Below, piece by piece: positions 1 to 59,459 of a stretch of 64,000 bases of DNA. A program made the position numbers and the translations under genes. The notes under the pieces are model-generated. The model saw only the letters and a list, made by a program, of their open reading frames with translations, made no database searches and was not told the origin of the DNA. Location: assembly GCF_053078305.1 (NCBI RefSeq), contig NZ_CP166879.1. One strand, written 5' to 3'. Within the stretch, counting starts at the first letter, position 1. Each line of letters starts with the position of its first letter.

Positions 1-1279
1 GAACCTGTCCGTGTGCCGCCAGTTCGCCGGTGGTACTGACAGTCAGGTTGCCCGCTGCCGCCAGACGTCCGTCATCTTTCACCCCGGCGGCCAGCAGACT
101 CCGCTCACCGCCGGTCAGACGCGCTGTCTGAATCCGGGTGTTGCGACGTGATGCCACAGAGCCTGTATGGGTGAAGACACCATCACTCTGTATCTGCGTA
201 TCCTGCCCCGCATAAACAGAACCACTGTTATGCAGCTCCCGGGTTGTCGCCAGATGCACATCCGTTTTCGCACTGATACTGCCACTGTTTTCAATACGTC
301 CGTCAGCCGTCAGGGTAACCGCCCCTGCCTGTGCACCAATATGACCGGCGTTACGAACACCCACCCCCGTTTCCGTACCGACAAGGCGAATTTTTCCGGC
401 ATACATTCCGCCAAGACTGGCCACATCCAGTGCCATCTGAGGCTGTGAAGAGACATCACCGGTCTTTTTCTCAATCTGCCCGTGCGCGATATCCACATTG
501 TTACGTCCTGTGGTCACTTTCAGATCCTGCGCCCAGATACCCGCATTAATCTTCACAGACCGGGCAATGATATCGGTATAATCCGTGCGCGAGGCATCCA
601 TCCCTTTGCCCGTAACCTGAATCTCACCACGTTCAACACTGAATCCGGTCAGACTGCCGTTTTTCATCTGCGGCTGCCCCGTGGTCAGCGTGGCCCGGTT
701 CGCATTAATAAAACCGCACCCGTCGCAACTGATGCCGGCCGGGTTCGCAATCACCACCTGCGCCTTTTTACCGGCAACCTCAACAAAACCGTTCAACTGG
801 CTGGGATTGCGACTGTTCACTTCATTAAGAATGATTCTGGCCTCTCCCTTAGCCAGCCACGGGTTCCCGGCCACCATGCCACCCAGTTGAGTCTGCACAT
901 TGTTATGGGCATTATTCAGAATGACGCCCTGGTTACCGACGTCGAACTGGCTGTATGCGTTATGTGAAACCCCGCCGGCAGAAGGCGTCTGAATATTCAC
1001 CTGCGGAATGCCGCTGGCCGTCTGCGTAATCGTGGGCTGCTGATACCCTGGTGCGCCATGGTCTGCGACAATGCCTGCAGCACTGACAGAATGCACCATC
1101 CCCGAAGCCAGCCACAAAGAGAATGCAAGCGGCGTGACACGGCAGATACGTTGCCTGTGTGGATATCCTGTGCGGGAGGACAGTGATGTACCGGCGCGAC
1201 CGGAACGGGCAATATCTGCCACCACCATCAGCATTCCCCGGGCTTTGTTAAAAATAATGCGGTAACAATTTCTGTTCAT
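1..1279 (-). CDS. cdiA: TpsA/CdiA-like large exoprotein, N-terminal part only (start at 1279, continues beyond window start)
   Basis: Manual minus-strand translation from ATG at 1279..1277 gives MNRNCYRIIFNKARGMLMVVADIARSGR (extended signal peptide region) followed by a TPS secretion domain with ANPAGISCDGCGFINANRATLTTG; frame stays open to position 1. Absent from the ORF track because no stop lies in the window. Confidence 0.8.
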   Translation of the reverse strand, partial: MNRNCYRIIFNKARGMLMVVADIARSGRAGTSLSSRTGYPHRQRICRVTPLAFSLWLASGMVHSVSAAGIVADHGAPGYQQPTITQTASGIPQVNIQTPSAGGVSHNAYSQFDVGNQGVILNNAHNNVQTQLGGMVAGNPWLAKGEARIILNEVNSRNPSQLNGFVEVAGKKAQVVIANPAGISCDGCGFINANRATLTTGQPQMKNGSLTGFSVERGEIQVTGKGMDASRTDYTDIIARSVKINAGIWAQDLKVTTGRNNVDIAHGQIEKKTGDVSSQPQMALDVASLGGMYAGKIRLVGTETGVGVRNAGHIGAQAGAVTLTADGRIENSGSISAKTDVHLATTRELHNSGSVYAGQDTQIQSDGVFTHTGSVASRRNTRIQTARLTGGERSLLAAGVKDDGRLAAAGNLTVSTTGELAAHGQV

Positions 1280-1294
1280 TCTGATAAACCTGAC

Positions 1295-1822
1295 TTATCT
1301 CTCCGGCACATCCACAGCAAGCGGGTGCTGCACACGCCACTGGCGCGCCTCTTCACGACTGACCTGTGCACCCCGGAAATTCATCACCCGTAACCCGGTC
1401 TGCTGCCCACGGTGGTACAGCGAACGCCAGCACAGACGGGGAAAAATATCCTGCCGGACAAGACGACTCATATCCGGAGTGTGTCCAAAAGGGGCAACCC
1501 AGTCACAGACCCACATCCGGTCGCCGCTGTTCCAGTCCGACTGAGGCATGAGAATTGCCGGCTGCGTAAGATAACGCGCCTCTGCCTCCGGGCTGAGCCA
1601 GGCCTGGCTCATGAAGAAAACCGGTCGCCCCTGCTCTGTTGCCACCACATACTGTCGGTGCTTAATCACCGGCAGCAGCAGGTCCGGCAGGGTATGCAGT
1701 GGCGCATCACGATGCAGGGGGGAGTGCATCCACAACCAGACGGCCGCCCCCAGGACTTCCGCCTCATTGACCGGCTCACCGGAATACAGGGGACTCAGAA
1801 CGTCATATTTCCCGTTACGCAT
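1295..1822 (-). CDS. cdiC: HlyC-family toxin-activating lysine acyltransferase (CdiC-like)
   Basis: 175 aa ORF between cdiB and cdiA; WLWMHSPLHRD and SGDRMWVCDWVAPFGH resemble HlyC/CyaC acyltransferases as I recall them. Confidence 0.7.
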   Translation of the reverse strand: MRNGKYDVLSPLYSGEPVNEAEVLGAAVWLWMHSPLHRDAPLHTLPDLLLPVIKHRQYVVATEQGRPVFFMSQAWLSPEAEARYLTQPAILMPQSDWNSGDRMWVCDWVAPFGHTPDMSRLVRQDIFPRLCWRSLYHRGQQTGLRVMNFRGAQVSREEARQWRVQHPLAVDVPER

Positions 1823-1831
1823 GAAACTTTC

Positions 1832-3571
1832 TCAGAAATCCCGGAACAGATTAAAACCGGCTGTCACATCACTCGTCATAAAACCCGCCGGCTTTGAAAA
1901 CGGACGACCGATGAAAACGTCATAATCCGTACTGAACAGTTGCCCCCTCAGCCCCACAACACCACCGGCCAGATGACGTCCCACCAGATATTCACTGCCG
2001 GCTCCCCCCACCTCGCCGTAATCCATTCCCAGATATAACGCCTGCTCCGGCAGTGGCGTACGCCAGGCCAGGTCGTTGCGGATATACCAGCCGTTACTGG
2101 CATTCAGCGTTCGCTCCCCGTCAAAACCACGAACCGTCCAGCGGTTACCGATGGCAAACTGTTCCTGTGGGGTCAGCGGGGTATTGCTCAGCTGGCGCTG
2201 ATACCGGAAGGAATAACTGAAGGGCTGCTCTGCCAGTGTAAAGGGCAGATTAAAGGATGCATTCATCTGCAGGATCTTACTGAGCGCCGTTGCCTCACCG
2301 AAGATTTCCTCCGGTGCCGGCTGTGCACCAAACCAGCGGGTTCCCCGTTGCCAGCTGACACCAGCATCCAGTGTGGCCTGAGAAATATAATGACGGTGCT
2401 GCAGCCCAAGTCGCCAGGCCGCTGTCTGCCGGCGCTGCACCTGGATTTCCGTATCATTAATGTAGTTACGCGACCTGCGGGCCTGAACATCGTAAGTCAG
2501 CACCGTTTTCTGCGTCCCGTTACGATGCAGTACCCGGCTCAGCTGCATGCCCAGATTCTGACTCTCGCCACTGTACTGGTAATCCTCAACCGCACCAGCT
2601 ACCGTCTGATGGTAATCGTAATCACTGGCGGTGACGGAAAACTGCCAGTAACCGAAAGGCACAGAGTAATGGGCCGTGTAGTTTTTACTGCCCTTACCCC
2701 CGTAATGTGGAAAATTATGGGTGGCAGAAACATACAGCAGGTCACTCAGGGAAAAAGGATTATCCAGAGAAAATGTTATACCACCGAGATAACGCCCTGT
2801 GCTGCGGGTACCTGAATCATCAAGCGAAAACCCCAGTCGCCAGTATTTATCCTGTTTACGGGTAATAAGAATATCACTTTCCCCTGGCTGCTCACCGGGC
2901 ACAATTTCCATATCAGCCTGCACACCCGGCAGTCGTTGCATATTCTCCAGCCCCTGCTCAATGTCCCGTAAATCCAGCAGAGAACCTTCGTGTGCCGGGA
3001 ATGAGGAATACAACTGAATATAGTCATCACTGTCCGGTGTCAGACGCACATGTCGCACAACACCGGGAATAATAACCAGCCGGAGGATACCGCTTTTTAA
3101 ATCCTGCGAAGGTGCCAGAACACGGGTGGTGACATAACCATGATCGACCAGACGGTTCTGCAATGTACTCATCAGCAGATTAATTCCTTTCGCCCCCAGG
3201 CAATGCCCGACCGCCCCGTTGGCGATTTTTTGTAAAGGCAGCCAGTGTGGTAACGCATCAGCCCCCTTCAGTTCCGTCTGTTTAATCTGAAAACAGGGCG
3301 TTTCAACAGGAAAATTAATCTTATGGGCAAAAGAGCCAGGTGCAGAAAGGCGAACATCAGGGGCTGAAGGCGTCAGTTGTTGCTCAAGGGCTTCCTGACG
3401 CTGCTGCTGAATGATAAATGTATCCTCTCCACTACGCCGGATATCCGCTGCCTGAAGAGATAAAGGCGATAGTAAAACAGACATCAGTGTCAGTGACAGC
3501 AAGGACGGACAGCGCCGGAATACGCTTTGTTCCTCAGCCCTCTCGTTCCTGCAACATAATTTTCCAGTCAA
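1832..3571 (-). CDS. cdiB: TpsB/CdiB outer-membrane two-partner secretion transporter (ShlB/FhaC family)
   Basis: 579 aa ORF with N-terminal signal peptide, POTRA-like region and C-terminal aromatic-rich beta-barrel ending in F; directly upstream of cdiC and cdiA in the same orientation. Exact start codon uncertain. Confidence 0.75.
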
Positions 3572-3732
3572 ACGAAAAACCTTTTATTCATGCCATACCA
3601 ACAATCACCAGCCTCCTGACGATACCTCCCACCATGTTTTGCAGTGGTACGCTACCGCCCTTCCGGTATTTACCCACACCAACCGGTACCAGAATGCTGA
3701 GTAACAAATCCGTTCAGAATTGACTTAATTTT

Positions 3733-3808
3733 GATCATTATAGAATAATGATCTGAGCGACAGCAATATGACAGATTTATCGATCGATATAACACAAATG
3801 AACAGATC
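3733..3808. promoter_or_regulatory. Candidate regulatory region upstream of cdiB with four GATC sites and two palindromes
   Basis: GATC at 3733, 3750, 3782, 3805; perfect 9-3-9 palindrome gatcattat-aga-ataatgatc at 3733..3753; palindrome tatcgatcgata at 3778..3789; direct repeat atatcgcaaaa at 3822 and 3838. Confidence 0.3.
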
Positions 3809-4159
3809 TTTATTCTGCCGAATATCGCAAAAACAGCATATCGCAAAACTTATAACCATAATTAATGGAAAAGTGCAGAAAATTATTCCACTGAATGCTT
3901 TTAATACAGTTGGTTAGCTAAAAAAATATCATTTTTTGATTTCAGTCATTGAAAATTGCAATGCGTGACGATTCAACAGCATTTAAGTGAGTTTCAGGAT
4001 ATGGGAAGGACATGAAAGGAGGAGCGTAATAAAACACACAGGAAGAAGGGGAAAATGTTTCGTAAAAACAGAAAATTAACAGCGCACATCAGGAAACTCA
4101 GTCTCCTGATTCAGTGCTACCACATGAAAATTTAGTTAACTGTTACCGTACTAAAATTT

Positions 4160-4351
4160 ATGTCAGAAGATGTTCCATTACCGAAAGTCAATCAGCGATA
4201 CAAAGACGATCATGGTGCGCTTGTCACCGTGACCAGTGTTGAGGAAACCCGGGTGGTGTTTATGCGGGAGGGCTATCCGCATCCCTGCATGCGACCGATG
4301 TACAACTTTCTGGGAAAATTCAAACCCGAAGCTCGGGAAGAAACAGAATAA
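4160..4351 (+). CDS. Small hypothetical protein (63 aa)
   Basis: ORF only; no family recognised. Confidence 0.3.
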   Translation: MSEDVPLPKVNQRYKDDHGALVTVTSVEETRVVFMREGYPHPCMRPMYNFLGKFKPEAREETE

Positions 4352-4403
4352 AACGAAATCCCTGCCGGCAATCACACTGCCTGATGGCAGCATAATCCAC
4401 TTA

Positions 4404-16123: not shown

Positions 16124-16239
16124 ACACTCTGCCAGGAAAATGCCTGATTACATTGCGTTAACCAACTGAAAACATGACACAAACACCTCATGCTCCTCCT
16201 GTTTCTCTTGCGTGACCGCCTTGCAATCAATAGAATAAA

Positions 16240-16280
16240 ACGATCGATAAAACAGATATCGATCGTTACTATCGATCGTT
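16240..16280 (+). promoter_or_regulatory. agn43 (flu) regulatory region with three GATC sites (OxyR / Dam phase-variation switch)
   Basis: GATC at 16242, 16261 and 16274 within cgatcgataaaacagatatcgatcgttactatcgatcg, about 220 bp upstream of the flu start; matches the known agn43 switch architecture. Confidence 0.75.
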
Positions 16281-16494
16281 TATAGTGGTTAATGGTCTGC
16301 GAAAAGGCAGTTGAATCTCTTCATCATGCAGAACGGAATTGCACAAAACGGACTGATACTTCTCTGGCGGATGAGAGAGGGGAAGCATTTATGTCCGGGA
16401 AAAACCACTGTATCTGACCATGCTGTTTTGTACCTGCCGGTATCCACATTTGTGGGTACCGGCTTTTTTATTCACCCTCTGTAAGGAAAAGCTG

Positions 16495-39099: not shown

Positions 39100-39759
39100 T
39101 TAACCAATAATATGAAGTGATGTCAGCGGGATATCGACACCCAACGCGCGCGAAAATAACCACTCTGGCTCGCCGAGATCGTTAAAAGATTCCTCACCAT
39201 TTAGCAGCAAATATTCGTAAGTATCTTCGGTCACTTGCCGCTGGTAGCCCATGGTAAAATTATGGACTTCCCATTTAGCATGATTTTGATTTTCTACTTT
39301 TTCCAGCATGTAGACGGGTTCGATATTTCCCGGTTCTTCGCTGTTAAAAAATCGCTGCCAGCGTTTTTCCTGCCAGTTTAAGGTCATTGCCCCCATCGTT
39401 TTGGCGTTGATCGCCTCGCGCCAGTGACTCTCTTTACTGATACCGTAGCTCTCTTCATAGACAAAGAGCTTGATATCATCAATGTCATCAATATCTTCGC
39501 CGCCGGTGGTATTGATTTGCAGAAACTCATCGCCTGAAGTGTAGTAGCGGAAAATCTGACTACCGCCGCCCAGATCGATGTGGCTGACAGCGGCTACCGT
39601 AAATTCCTCACCCGGCAGCGCAATCAGCAATTCATCTTCCAGCAAACGAAACGCTAACGTGTCGAGCGTAAAGCCACTATTAAGATGAAGTCCCAGCGGA
39701 CCGCGAGCGATTGCAGGCTTATTATCCTTGCCAAACAGACGCTGGAAAAAACCAGACAT
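39100..39759 (-). CDS. yjfK: DUF2491-family protein
   Basis: 219 aa. Confidence 0.8.
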   Translation of the reverse strand: MSGFFQRLFGKDNKPAIARGPLGLHLNSGFTLDTLAFRLLEDELLIALPGEEFTVAAVSHIDLGGGSQIFRYYTSGDEFLQINTTGGEDIDDIDDIKLFVYEESYGISKESHWREAINAKTMGAMTLNWQEKRWQRFFNSEEPGNIEPVYMLEKVENQNHAKWEVHNFTMGYQRQVTEDTYEYLLLNGEESFNDLGEPEWLFSRALGVDIPLTSLHIIG

Positions 39760-41054: not shown

Positions 41055-41786
41055 CTAGCTGCGCTGACGAACCGCTTCAAATAAGCAAATTCCGGTTGCA
41101 ACCGAAACGTTCAGAGAAGAAACACTTCCTGCCATTGGGATGCTGATCAACTCATCGCAATGTTCACGGGTCAGGCGACGCATACCTTCACCTTCCGCGC
41201 CCATCACCAGCGCCAGGCGTCCGGTCATTTTGCTCTGATAGAGTGTATGATCCGCCTCACCTGCCGTACCGACGATCCAGATATTCTCTTCCTGCAACAT
41301 ACGCATGGTACGCGCAAGGTTAGTCACCCGAATCAGTGGAACGCTTTCTGCCGCGCCGCAGGCTACTTTTTTCGCCGTAGCGTTGAGCTGTGCGGAGCGA
41401 TCTTTCGGCACAATCACCGCGTGAACGCCAGCAGCGTCCGCGCTACGCAGGCACGCGCCGAGGTTGTGCGGATCGGTTACACCGTCGAGGATCAGCAGGA
41501 ACGGTTGATCGAGCGAAGCGATCAGCTCCGGCAGATCGTTTTCCTGATACTGACGTCCTGGCTTCACGCGGGCGATAATGCCCTGATGCACGGCACCGTC
41601 GCTTTTCTCGTCGAGATATTGGCGGTTTGCCAACTGGATAACCACGCCCTGAGACTCAAGGGCGTGAATCAGCGGTAACAGACGTTTATCTTCACGGCCT
41701 TTTAAAATAAAGACTTCCTGAAAACGTTCAGGGGCGCGCTCCAGCAGGGCCTGCACTGCGTGGATGCCGTAAATCATTTCGCTCAT
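41055..41786 (-). CDS. rlmB: 23S rRNA (guanosine2251-2'-O)-methyltransferase
   Basis: 243 aa SpoU-family methyltransferase. Confidence 0.9.
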
Positions 41787-51811: not shown

Positions 51812-53651
51812 CTTTCAGGGCTTTTATCGCCGGATGTAAATCAACAGATTGTAACAGACCACCCGGCGGCGTTTTCACAAGTTGCGGACATAACCGTTCC
51901 ACGTCCGCCAGCAGGGTTATGGCCTGTGCCATTGACCACTGCGCATGTTCGCTCATCAGATTTCGTGCAATCCACTGCGCAATATTGCCAGGTTCGAATA
52001 CGGACTGCTTCGCCAGGTAGCCTATCAGTTCAGGAATCAAGATTTGTAAATTTTGTTGGCGTAAGGGTAAAGGCACGGCCCTGATGGTCACATGCTGTGC
52101 ATCTGACTGGAAATCAATACCCAATTCCGCCAGGGCAGACTGCGCTTTTTCTAATGCCGATTTTTCTTCGCCAGAAACTTTTAGCCGCAACGGAATCAGC
52201 AACGGCTGGGCGCAAACGGGCGCTTCACCCGGCGTCAGTTGTACCTGACGCAGCCAACGTTCTGCCACTGGCAAGGCTAAAAGTGAAATGTTGCCGTCGC
52301 GCTCCAGCAACGCACAGTCGGAATGGACGATAGTCAGTACCCGACCAAAACTCTGACTGTTCGCCGCAAGTGCAGGTTCCTGCGGTTCCGGCGCTTTTGG
52401 TTTTTGCATCGGCGCGGGCGTTTGCAAAAGCTGGCGATACACTTCACCTTGCTGTTTCTGGTAACCTGGCTGCGCATTCGGCCAGGGGGCAGCCGGACGA
52501 CTGCCTGATGCTGGCGCAGGAGTGTAGCGCGGAGCTACTGGCTCACGAACTGCCGGTTCAGCAAAGTGATTGCGCCCCGCCGCCACGCGGTTTTCCGGAA
52601 TGGCACGCGGTGCAGGTTGTGGTTCATCGTCCAGCGGTAGCGGCGTTTCCAGTTGCTGTTGTAGCACGCTCAGCACGCCCTGATAGATAAAATCATGCAC
52701 CAGACGCGACTGATGGAAACGCACTTCGTGTTTGGCGGGGTGTACGTTGACGTCCACCTGATGCGGGTCGATCTCCAGATACAGCACAAATGCCGGTTGT
52801 TGATCGGCCCCCAGTTTGTCTTCACAGGCCTGGCGGATCGCATGATTGATCAGGCGATCGCGCATCATGCGACCATTCACGTAGCAATACTGAATTTCTG
52901 CCAGGGCGGGCGTGGTGTGATTCGGATCGGCCACCCAGCCGCGCAGGGTGAGATCGCCGTGTTGCCATTCAATCGCCAGCGCTTGTTCGAGAAAAGCGGT
53001 GCCACAAATCGCGCCTAAGCGCCGTTCTTTTTGCCCGCCTTCCGGCACTGCGCGGTACTGACGCACAATTTTACCGTTATGCGACAGGTTGATCGTGACG
53101 TCGAAACGCGCCAGCGCAATGCGGCGGATGATTTCATCGATATGGTTAAATTCGGTTTTCTCGGTGCGCAGGAATTTGCGCCGCGCCGGGGTGTTGTAGA
53201 ACAGATCCAGCACCTCCAGCGTCGTTCCCACCGGATGCGCCGCCGGTTTAACCGTCACGTCCATATCGCGCCCTTCGGCATAGGCCTGCCAGGCTTCCTG
53301 CTGTTCTGCGGTGCGTGAAGTGAGCGTCAGGCGGGAAACCGAACTGATACTCGCCAGCGCCTCACCGCGAAAGCCAAGGCTGATAATGGCTTCGAGATCG
53401 TCCAGAGAGGCGATTTTACTGGTGGCATGACGAGCCAGCGCCAGCGCCAGCTCATCTTTTTTGATACCGCAGCCGTTATCACGAATGCGGATAAGTTTCG
53501 CCCCACCGCGTTCGATATCAATATCGATACGCGTCGCACCTGCATCGAGGCTGTTTTCCACCAGTTCTTTGACTACCGACGCAGGTCGCTCGACCACCTC
53601 ACCTGCGGCAATCTGGTTCGCCAGTTGTGGCGGTAAGACCTGAATTGGCAT
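51804..53651 (-). CDS. mutL: DNA mismatch repair protein MutL
   Basis: 615 aa from [23 protein letters not shown]. Confidence 0.95.
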
Positions 53652-58404: not shown

Positions 58405-58480
<76 letters not shown>

Positions 58481-58515
58481 TTGGGTGGTCTGTGCCTTAC
58501 AGCACTTTCAAATTT

Positions 58516-58591
<76 letters not shown>

Positions 58592-58627
58592 TTGGGTGGT
58601 CTGTGCTTTGCAGCACTTTTCAAATTT

Positions 58628-58703
<76 letters not shown>

Positions 58704-58913: not shown

Positions 58914-59459
58914 TTACAGCTTGATAAAATGCTCGCGGTAGTAAGCCAGCTCCGCCACCGATTCACGGATATCATCCATCGCCTGATGCGTCCCCTGCTT
59001 GGTAAAACCATCCAGAATTTCCGGCTTCCAGCGGCGCGCCAGCTCTTTCAGGGTGCTGACATCGAGATAACGGTAGTGGAAGTAGGCTTCCAGCTCCGGC
59101 ATGTATTTAAACAGGAAGCGACGATCCTGGCCGATGCTGTTACCGCAAATCGGCGATTTTCCCGCAGGCACCCACTGTTTTAAGAATTCGAGCGTTGCCA
59201 GTTCAGCTTCACGATCGCCCATCGTGCTCGCTTTCACGCGCTCTACCAGCCCGCTGGCGGTATGGGTGCGCACGTTCCAGTCATCCATCAGCGCCAGCTG
59301 TTCATCGGACTGGTGTACTGCAATGGTCGGCCCTTCTGCCAGAATATTCAGGTTGGCATCGGTCACCAGCGTGGCAATCTCAATAATGCGATCGCGCTCG
59401 GGATCCAGACCGGTCATCTCAAGATCGATCCAAATCAGGTTGTTTTCATTGGCACTCAT
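58914..59459 (-). CDS. orn: Oligoribonuclease
   Basis: 181 aa from [21 protein letters not shown] (DEDDh exonuclease). Confidence 0.95.

Follow-up and report, generated by a model that had tools for sequence, protein, structure and literature searches.

A predicted Fur- and Dam-responsive promoter upstream of a class IV cdi operon is homologous to the promoter of the sci1 type VI secretion cluster

The window analysed here, a stretch of 64,000 nucleotides (nt) from contig NZ_CP166879.1 of assembly GCF_053078305.1, carries at its left end a minus-strand contact-dependent growth inhibition (CDI) operon, cdiBCA, and upstream of cdiB a cluster of GATC sites and palindromes. Judged by alignment, window positions 3721-4159 are the homologue of the promoter of the sci1 type VI secretion system (T6SS) of enteroaggregative Escherichia coli (EAEC). 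Previous work showed that the EAEC promoter, Psci1, is an epigenetic switch in which Fur binding and Dam methylation overlap (Brunet et al. 2011, PMC3145626). We propose that a sigma-70 promoter, reading the minus strand toward cdiBCA, has this GATC cluster at its core, and we put the probability that this promoter is functional, repressed by Fur and modulated by Dam at roughly 0.65. What was directly observed is that the two promoters are homologous, with their elements in exact register and conserved, and which genes the locus contains.

An earlier note on this DNA had drawn attention to four clustered GATC sites, and these were found to start at 3733, 3750, 3782 and 3805, spanning 72 nt from start to start and 76 nt from end to end. 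Both palindromes that it named are perfect, the 9-3-9 palindrome GATCATTAT-aga-ATAATGATC at 3733-3753 and the 12-nt palindrome TATCGATCGATA at 3778-3789, and the 11-nt direct repeat ATATCGCAAAA is present at 3822 and 3838. The cluster is also upstream of cdiB, as had been said: a minus-strand TpsB gene (1832-3484) is followed by HlyC-family and TPS genes. The DUF4222 gene on the other side of the cluster is divergent from cdiB; the cluster therefore falls in a divergent intergenic region of 675 nt and stands 250-325 nt upstream of the cdiB ATG. In addition, an imperfect inverted repeat, 3742-3755 and 3803-3816, with 13 of 14 positions complementary, joins the second and fourth GATC sites.

The kinship with Psci1 emerged from a sensitive BLAST search of the intergenic region, 3485-4159, against 5426 complete E. 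coli genomes, which gave four classes of match. Matches of the first class were full-length, with 94-100% identity, and those of the second began at 3605 (O157:H7, with an IS3-family insertion). Matches of the third class covered 3721-4159 only, at 73-82% identity, and lay in T6SS islands between DUF4222 and tssB, the first gene of the type VI secretion cluster at these loci. The fourth class covered 3651-3754 only, at about 79% identity. One T6SS-linked copy, L017, aligns column for column with the window and includes exact matches to the published fur1 oligonucleotide and to the Prom sci1-3 primer. The published "distal GATC" of the sci1 fragment corresponds to window position 4208, inside DUF4222, where primer Prom sci1-5 anneals.

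The register of the GATC sites is that of Psci1. In the published map of the 596-bp Psci1 fragment (Fig. S1), GATC-III, GATC-II and GATC-I are at 451, 483 and 500; their respective contexts are PvuI/BspDI, BglII/Hpy188I and BclI, and the three sites extend over "53 nucleotides", with GATC-I "at the 3' of the -10" (PMC3145626). The corresponding spacings in the window, 17 and 32 nt, equal those of Psci1, and the interval 3733-3785 is exactly 53 nt. The contexts in the window are ATCGATCGAT for GATC-III, GATCTGA for GATC-II and TGATCA for GATC-I, so that the restriction contexts are fully kept at two of the three sci1 sites, and GATC-II keeps Hpy188I and loses BglII. The promoter elements, read on the minus strand, are as follows.

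3742 to 3724, minus strand: F1, predicted Fur box TATAATGATCAAAATTAAG, assigned by homology to fur1; it overlaps the -10 and contains GATC-I.
3742 to 3737, minus strand: putative -10, TATAAT, at -12 to -7, matching the position of the putative Psci1 -10 (PMC3145626).
About 3730, minus strand: predicted transcription start (A), +1.
3736 to 3733: GATC-I (G1), in a BclI site, TGATCA, at -6 to -3, with the same enzyme context and the same 17-nt distance to G2 as in Psci1.
3753 to 3750: GATC-II (G2), overlapping an Hpy188I site, TCTGA, between the -10 and the -35.
3766 to 3761, minus strand: putative -35, TTGCTG, matching TTGACA at 3 of 6 positions with an 18-nt spacer, at -36 to -31, between G2 and G3.
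3785 to 3782: GATC-III (G3), in the palindrome TATCGATCGATA (3778-3789), with PvuI and BspDI sites, upstream of the -35.
3806 to 3788, minus strand: F2, a diverged homologue of the distal Fur box, upstream of GATC-III.
3805-3808: the fourth GATC (G4), in a BglII site, AGATCT, at the distal edge of F2.

The fur1 oligonucleotide, with the core TATAATGATCAAAATTAAA, bound Fur in the Fur titration assay and in electrophoretic mobility shift assays (PMC3145626, Table S1). F1 is identical to this core at 18 of 19 positions, and it matches the Fur consensus at 13 of 19, as does the EAEC box. Since a consensus score of this size is weak alone (F1 is among 18 window positions with at least 13/19), the assignment of F1 rests on its homology to the tested fur1 box. 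The sequence TATAATGATC occurs once in the window, against 0.09 occurrences expected. The 9-3-9 palindrome thus consists of the -10 hexamer with a Fur-box half-site on either side, ATCATTAT and ATAATGAT, each with a GATC. The distal box is more diverged: the stretch from 3809 to 3785 that includes F2 is identical to the tested fur2 oligonucleotide at 19 of 25 positions and scores 8-9/19 against the Fur consensus, versus 11-12/19 in EAEC.

The individual sites differ in how widely they are kept. GATC-I is invariant in all CDI- and T6SS-linked copies and is lost in copies linked to hly, the alpha-hemolysin operon. GATC-II forms the right arm of the 9-3-9 palindrome in CDI- and hly-linked copies and is lost in the 300081/E. 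albertii lineage, and the CATATTG that flanks the -35 is common to CDI-, T6SS- and hly-linked copies. GATC-III, 32 nt from G2 and with the same enzyme sites as in Psci1, lies at a local peak of conservation. G4 is present in the window, RM10042, E300010 and FMU073332. It is missing from O157, CV839, 300081 and E. albertii, and also from AST81, whose sequence agrees with the EAEC 17-2 oligonucleotides; on the Sau3AI fragment map of Psci1 there is likewise no site at this position (PMC3145626).

A phylogenetic footprint was made from six diverged copies that included CDI-, insertion sequence (IS)- and T6SS-linked forms. Invariant columns made up 54% of the alignment overall, and they comprised 18/19 positions of F1, 6/6 of the -10, 4/4 of G1, 4/4 of G3 and 10/19 of F2. 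The F1/-10 block and the G3 block are conservation peaks, equalled only by the block directly upstream of DUF4222.

These results bear on one alternative, that GATC sites and palindromes happen to be grouped in an AT-rich spacer and have no function. In 5000 dinucleotide-preserving shuffles of the intergenic region (675 nt, 37% G+C), four GATC sites fell inside 72 nt with a frequency of 0.0018, and an inverted repeat that was perfect, with a loop of at most 5 nt and arms no shorter than 9 nt, appeared with a frequency of 0.019; the clustering is thus modestly non-random. In favour of chance, the whole window has 250 GATC sites, or 1 per 256 nt, and six four-site clusters tighter than that at 3733-3805, and GATC density by itself is not exceptional within the window. 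Because the elements are homologous to, and in exact register with, those of a characterised switch, and because the key sites are invariant across diverged copies, a chance grouping is effectively refuted. As to the tighter clusters themselves, those at 59390-59430 (4 sites in 37 nt at 59390), 41471-41535 and 52770-52850 are the tightest and lie inside core coding genes, an RNase_T-family exonuclease gene, a SpoU-family methylase gene and mutL being the genes that hold the three that were checked. Chromosomal backbone makes up the right half of the window, where rnr, mutL and, at 58405-58703, three tRNA-Gly genes are located.

Downstream of the predicted start, the locus parts from its T6SS-linked relatives. 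The leader features, together with the direct repeat on the other side of the promoter, are these.

3485-3730, minus strand: predicted 5' leader of the cdi operon, about 246 nt, which replaces the T6SS leader of about 70 nt from about +10.
3659 to 3648, minus strand: candidate ops element (RfaH recruitment site), GGCGGTAGCGTA, at about +72 to +83, on the cdiB sense strand.
3822-3848: direct repeat of two copies of ATATCGCAAAA, which reads TTTTGCGATAT on the minus strand; relative to the predicted start it extends from about -92 to -118.

Homology with the T6SS-linked copies ends near 3720, roughly +10 of the predicted transcript, and from about 3720 to about 3651 the window is homologous to the leader region upstream of hlyC in chromosomes of uropathogenic E. 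coli and in alpha-hly plasmids. Such segments were seen at 3990-4180 of the locus from the ATCC 25922 chromosome (L004) and at 3490-3680 of that from plasmid pRM13752 (L007). The literature on hly describes three promoters for this operon and places two of these 170-320 nt upstream of hlyC. Within the cdi leader, the ops 8-mer GGCGGTAG is at 3659 to 3652, inside GGAAGGGCGGTAGC, which is common to the hly leader, and the element (GGCGGTAGnnTG) is on the non-template strand downstream of the predicted start. The longer sequence GGCGGTAGCGTA matches what we take to be the ops consensus, GGCGGTAGCGTG, at 11 of 12 positions. Three more exact copies of GGCGGTAG in the window, at 39560, 39868 and 44282 (minus strand), are in or near minus-strand open reading frames (for a DUF2491 protein and RNase R) and are probably due to chance. 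The hly leader is a classic RfaH target. Because the cdi leader is homologous to it, RfaH-dependent antitermination of the very long cdi operon would be the likeliest role of this segment. By alignment, then, the locus is a three-way mosaic, in which the upstream switch half is held in common with sci1, the core promoter with sci1 and hly, and the leader with hly. The upstream direct repeat, with its copies 16 nt apart, is conserved only in part where the promoter is T6SS-linked, and nothing points to a protein that would bind it.

At Psci1, methylation of G1 is blocked by Fur, both in vivo and in vitro, and Fur binds less well to the methylated DNA (PMC3145626). Later work showed that Psci1 gives heritable ON and OFF populations for which F2 and G3 are decisive; G3 mutants were homogeneously OFF, and G3 and G1 were the sites whose mutation cut the number of ON cells most (Taillefer et al. 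2026, PMC13262931). By homology, Fur binding, differential methylation, bistability, a start site near 3730 and RfaH dependence would be expected at the cdi locus as well. In iron-replete cells, Fur-Fe2+ on F1 (3724-3742) would cover the -10 TATAAT, and Fur binding would therefore block RNA polymerase and shield GATC-I (3733) from Dam. Upon release of Fur, by iron limitation or transiently at replication, Dam would methylate GATC-I, and this methylation would lower the affinity for Fur and stabilise the ON state. GATC-III, in the TATCGATCGATA palindrome, and F2 would set the heritable ratio of ON to OFF cells, so that the operon would be expressed in part of a clonal population. Transcription from about 3730 would then run through the hly-like leader of about 246 nt, where the ops element (3659 to 3648) would recruit RfaH, and RfaH would help RNA polymerase to traverse the cdiBCA(I) operon, which is very long. 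The suggestion of the earlier note that the locus may be under methylation- or repressor-dependent control is thus strongly supported by the homology to a Fur/Dam-controlled promoter with its elements in register; the analogy with the OxyR switch of flu, which accompanied it, is unsupported.

Several observations weigh against the proposed Fur/Dam promoter. F2 is degenerate, with 8-9/19 matches to the consensus and 19/25 to the fur2 oligonucleotide, and since EAEC F2 mutants are largely ON even in iron-rich medium and are ON in lysogeny broth (LB) (PMC13262931), the window copy may be leaky or may not be bistable. The -10 and -35 of Psci1 were only called "putative" (PMC3145626), and the starts are predicted for both operons. 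The -35 of the cdi promoter matches the consensus at only 3 of 6 positions, and this weak -35 is the reason why a generic sigma-70 scan did not call a minus-strand promoter at the TATAAT. For the leader, the count of GGCGGTAG in the window, 4 against 1.56 expected, is not significant alone, and the Rfam JUMPstart model RF01707 matched 3699 to 3648 below threshold, with 18.2 bits versus a gathering score of 35 and an E value of 0.55. Both conserved halves of JUMPstart are present, 32 nt apart instead of 18; apart from this match, Rfam gave no RNA family in window positions 3300-4400. Literature searches on CDI with Dam, GATC, Fur or RfaH and on E. coli methylomes returned nothing on the cdi locus. 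Finally, a cloned class IV locus, STEC4, was active in LB (PMC8510554).

One result from the literature fits the proposed promoter. The class IV cdiBCAI locus of STEC_O31 was cloned and killed target cells from its "native regulatory elements" (Halvorsen et al. 2021, PMC8510554), and its activity was lost upon deletion of the predicted promoter (PMC8510554). The cloning primer ZR258 matches window positions 4086-4108, and the published functional clone therefore carried the same type of whole upstream region. Activity in LB could fit a weak F2 and weak repression, or titration of Fur by the multicopy plasmid. Regulation was outside the scope of this paper on class IV CDI, in which Dam, iron and RfaH go unmentioned and Fur is not named as a regulator (PMC8510554).

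The same points could be read in another way, namely that the cdi promoter is a homologous relic, of the same ancestry as Psci1 but devoid of heritable ON/OFF switching in the cdi context. Such a promoter would be weakly Fur-repressed, silenced by H-NS or near-constitutive, and its GATC sites would be inherited and unused. The weak F2 homologue (8-9/19) speaks for this, given that repression and heterogeneity in EAEC need F2, as does the killing of targets in LB by the cloned locus from its native region. So do the variation of G2 and G4 among copies and the 34-39% G+C of the region, typical of H-NS targets; and the hly-linked copies, which have neither G1 nor G3, indicate that the promoter can exist without the switch. 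However, F1, the -10, G1 and G3 show no variation among copies with differences at 46% of the other columns, in EAEC it is mutation of G3 and of G1 that costs the most ON cells, and the CDI-linked type has gained rather than lost GATC sites and Fur-like half-sites, as seen in the perfect palindrome and in G4 at the edge of F2. We therefore consider loss of switching unlikely and prefer a promoter that still responds to Fur and Dam.

The earlier note had compared the cluster to the Dam/OxyR switch of flu (agn43), which is in the same window. In the flu regulatory region, 16230-16285, repeats of the ATCGATCG type carry three GATC sites, which start at 16242, 16261 and 16274. An agn43-like switch at the cdi locus, in which OxyR binds unmethylated GATC sites and represses cdi until methylation locks the ON state, would account for the ATCGATCGAT motif that the two regions have in common and for a match to the OxyR consensus at 3725 that spans G1 and G2. 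The whole window was scanned with the consensus ATAGnTnnnAnCTAT-N7-ATAGnTnnnAnCTAT, with 20 scored positions. The match at 3725 scored 12/20, but the true flu site scored only 12-13/20 and 42 window positions reached at least 12/20. With about 40 positions at the score of the candidate, the scan is uninformative and has no discriminating power. The GATC spacings also differ, being 17, 32 and 23 nt at cdi versus 19 and 13 nt at flu. In addition, the palindrome is built from the Fur-box half-sites ATCATTAT and ATAATGAT on either side of the -10, rather than from an OxyR site, and experiments on the homologous promoter identified Fur as its repressor (PMC3145626). With one short motif in common, the comparison with flu is not supported, and control by OxyR appears hardly credible. 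A pap-type Lrp/Dam switch was also rejected: it needs two GATC sites about 102 nt apart, set in Lrp sites and next to a papI/papB-like regulator gene, and those here are 17, 32 and 23 nt apart, 72 nt in total, with a divergent neighbour that encodes a DUF4222 protein and not a member of the PapI/PapB family.

The cluster might instead regulate DUF4222, on the plus strand, from the promoter-like sequence TTGACT-18-AATAAT at 3720-3749. This site was the sole match of the generic promoter scan, at 10 of 12 positions, and in CDI- and T6SS-linked islands alike DUF4222 is accompanied by the region to the right of 3721. Yet the scan found 1 site against 1.9 expected, the plus-strand hexamers are not conserved in T6SS-linked copies (CTGATT/TCGATT and TACGAA/GACAAT), the site is more than 410 nt from the DUF4222 start, and a separate, highly conserved block, 4105-4160, stands directly upstream of that gene. 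A plus-strand role for the cluster is accordingly very unlikely. The block at 4105-4160 has the highest conservation of the intergenic region (mean column conservation 0.92-0.99); it holds a 25-nt imperfect direct repeat, TTCAGTGCTACCACATGAAAATTTA / TTAACTGTTACCGTACTAAAATTTA, and may be a promoter or operator of DUF4222.

The genes that flank the proposed Fur/Dam promoter are as follows.

2-1279, minus strand: cdiA, 5' part, of the filamentous-haemagglutinin type, with ESPR, TPS and the first haemagglutinin repeats (Pfam TPS 1.1e-57, ESPR 6e-11; NCBIfam TIGR01901).
1295-1822, minus strand: cdiC, HlyC-family lysine acyltransferase (Pfam HlyC 6.3e-32).
1832-3484, minus strand: cdiB, ShlB/FhaC-type TpsB transporter with POTRA (Pfam ShlB 1.6e-109, POTRA_2, POTRA_3).
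4160-4351, plus strand: divergent DUF4222 gene of the island backbone (Pfam DUF4222 5.7e-23).

The order cdiB-cdiC-cdiA defines class IV cdi loci (PMC8510554), and Pfam places ShlB/POTRA, HlyC and ESPR plus TPS, in that order, on consecutive minus-strand open reading frames of the window. cdiA leaves the window at base 1, its left end, and the C-terminal toxin of CdiA and cdiI fall outside. On the other side, DUF4222 is the same neighbour as in T6SS-linked loci. A TTG at 3502 to 3500 (minus strand), 18 nt upstream of the annotated cdiB ATG (3484), is a possible cdiB start; a UUG at that distance was proposed as the start so as to restore a signal peptide (Halvorsen et al. 2021, PMC8510554), and cdiB homologues in RefSeq begin at the ATG.

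Related operons have decayed in some strains. In RM10042 (L001 165-9880, nearly identical to window 1-3484), cdiB is split by a frameshift and cdiA is fragmented, unlike in the window, where cdiB is intact; many of the approximately 1050 CDI-linked copies may therefore precede decayed operons. In O157:H7 (L005 2248-3461, ECP19-198), an IS3-family element has entered the cdi leader at the equivalent of window position 3605 or so and stands between the promoter and a remnant cdiB (POTRA) gene, so that an intact promoter of the Fur/Dam type points into the IS.

In the 5426 complete E. coli genomes, the CDI-linked form (at least 80% of 3400-4400 matched) was found in 1051, the T6SS-linked junction in 175 and the hly-linked segment in 298, the last occurring also in many alpha-hly plasmids. 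The CDI-linked form is thus about six times commoner than the characterised T6SS-linked form. A scan of 100,044 species-representative genomes with the F1 19-mer found its sole true homologue outside E. coli in Escherichia albertii, and there is therefore no cross-genus footprint; seven other matches were chance matches in AT-rich genomes. One Citrobacter plasmid matches the promoter part of the query, window positions 3721-3815.

To our knowledge, the regulation of E. coli CDI systems is poorly understood. Targeted literature searches found no paper in which Fur, Dam or RfaH is linked to a cdi locus of E. coli. The papers on Psci1 (PMC3145626, PMC13262931) mention neither CDI nor hemolysin, and discussion of Fur, Dam or RfaH is absent from those on class IV CDI. 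The switch as such is not new; as far as the searchable literature shows, its placement before a CDI operon, the chimeric leader with ops and the kinship with the hly promoter are. Tentatively, and at somewhat less than even odds, these arrangements could reflect a portable, bistable Fur/Dam cassette that has recombined before three attack operons, those of the sci1 T6SS, of class IV CDI and, in degenerate form, of alpha-hemolysin. Its breakpoints would fall at the -35 and no more than about 10 nt from the transcription start. A conserved regulatory cassette would have kept its fixed place in the island as the weapons behind it were exchanged, the join falling a few nt past the transcription start, and the hemolysin leader and promoter would be tied to the same ancestry as the cdi/sci1 promoter. 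If the CDI copy works like Psci1, class IV CDI would be iron-repressed in roughly a fifth of complete E. coli genomes and its expression would belong to a heritable subpopulation of ON cells, by the trade-off logic already proposed for the T6SS, and the RfaH/ops leader and the extra methylation site in F2 could retune the ratio of ON to OFF cells. A testable prediction is that class IV CDI is deployed by a subpopulation of cells under iron limitation.

The cdi locus can be set beside four known systems. With the cloned locus of STEC_O31 it has in common the gene order cdiB-cdiC-cdiA. With flu it would have in common a GATC cluster in a repressor-binding region and competition between Dam and a repressor, the same logic as that of Fur and Dam, along with one ATCGATCG motif; the repressor, the spacing and the position relative to the promoter differ, and 3720-3810 has no homology to flu beyond the short motif. 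With hlyCABD the likeness is at the level of DNA: window 3651-3766 (minus strand) is about 79-80% identical to a segment some 630-740 nt upstream of hlyC, with CATATTG at the -35, AGATCATTATTCTATA(A/G)TG at G2 and the -10, and a common leader through GGAAGGGCGGTAGC. The hly-linked -10 reads TATAGT or TATAAT, and GATC-II is kept; GATC-I, however, is replaced (GTGCTC or ATGTTC), GATC-III is absent and nothing is common upstream of the -35. Both operons encode an HlyC-family acyltransferase, and their other downstream genes are unrelated.

The closest known system is Psci1. The DNA is homologous from about +10 upstream through the divergent DUF4222, the island backbone neighbours are the same, and G2 lies between the -10 and the -35 and G3 upstream of the -35, as described for Psci1 in 2011 and 2026. 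The two differ in cargo, which is the class IV cdiBCA operon in the window and tssB with the T6SS genes at Psci1, and in the leader, that of the T6SS being about 70 nt and that of the window about 246 nt, hly-like and with an ops element. They differ also within the promoter: F2 of the window is diverged, with the fourth GATC (3805) at its edge only there, and G2 of the window is part of GATCATTAT, in which the BglII site is lost and a perfect 9-3-9 palindrome with G1 is formed.

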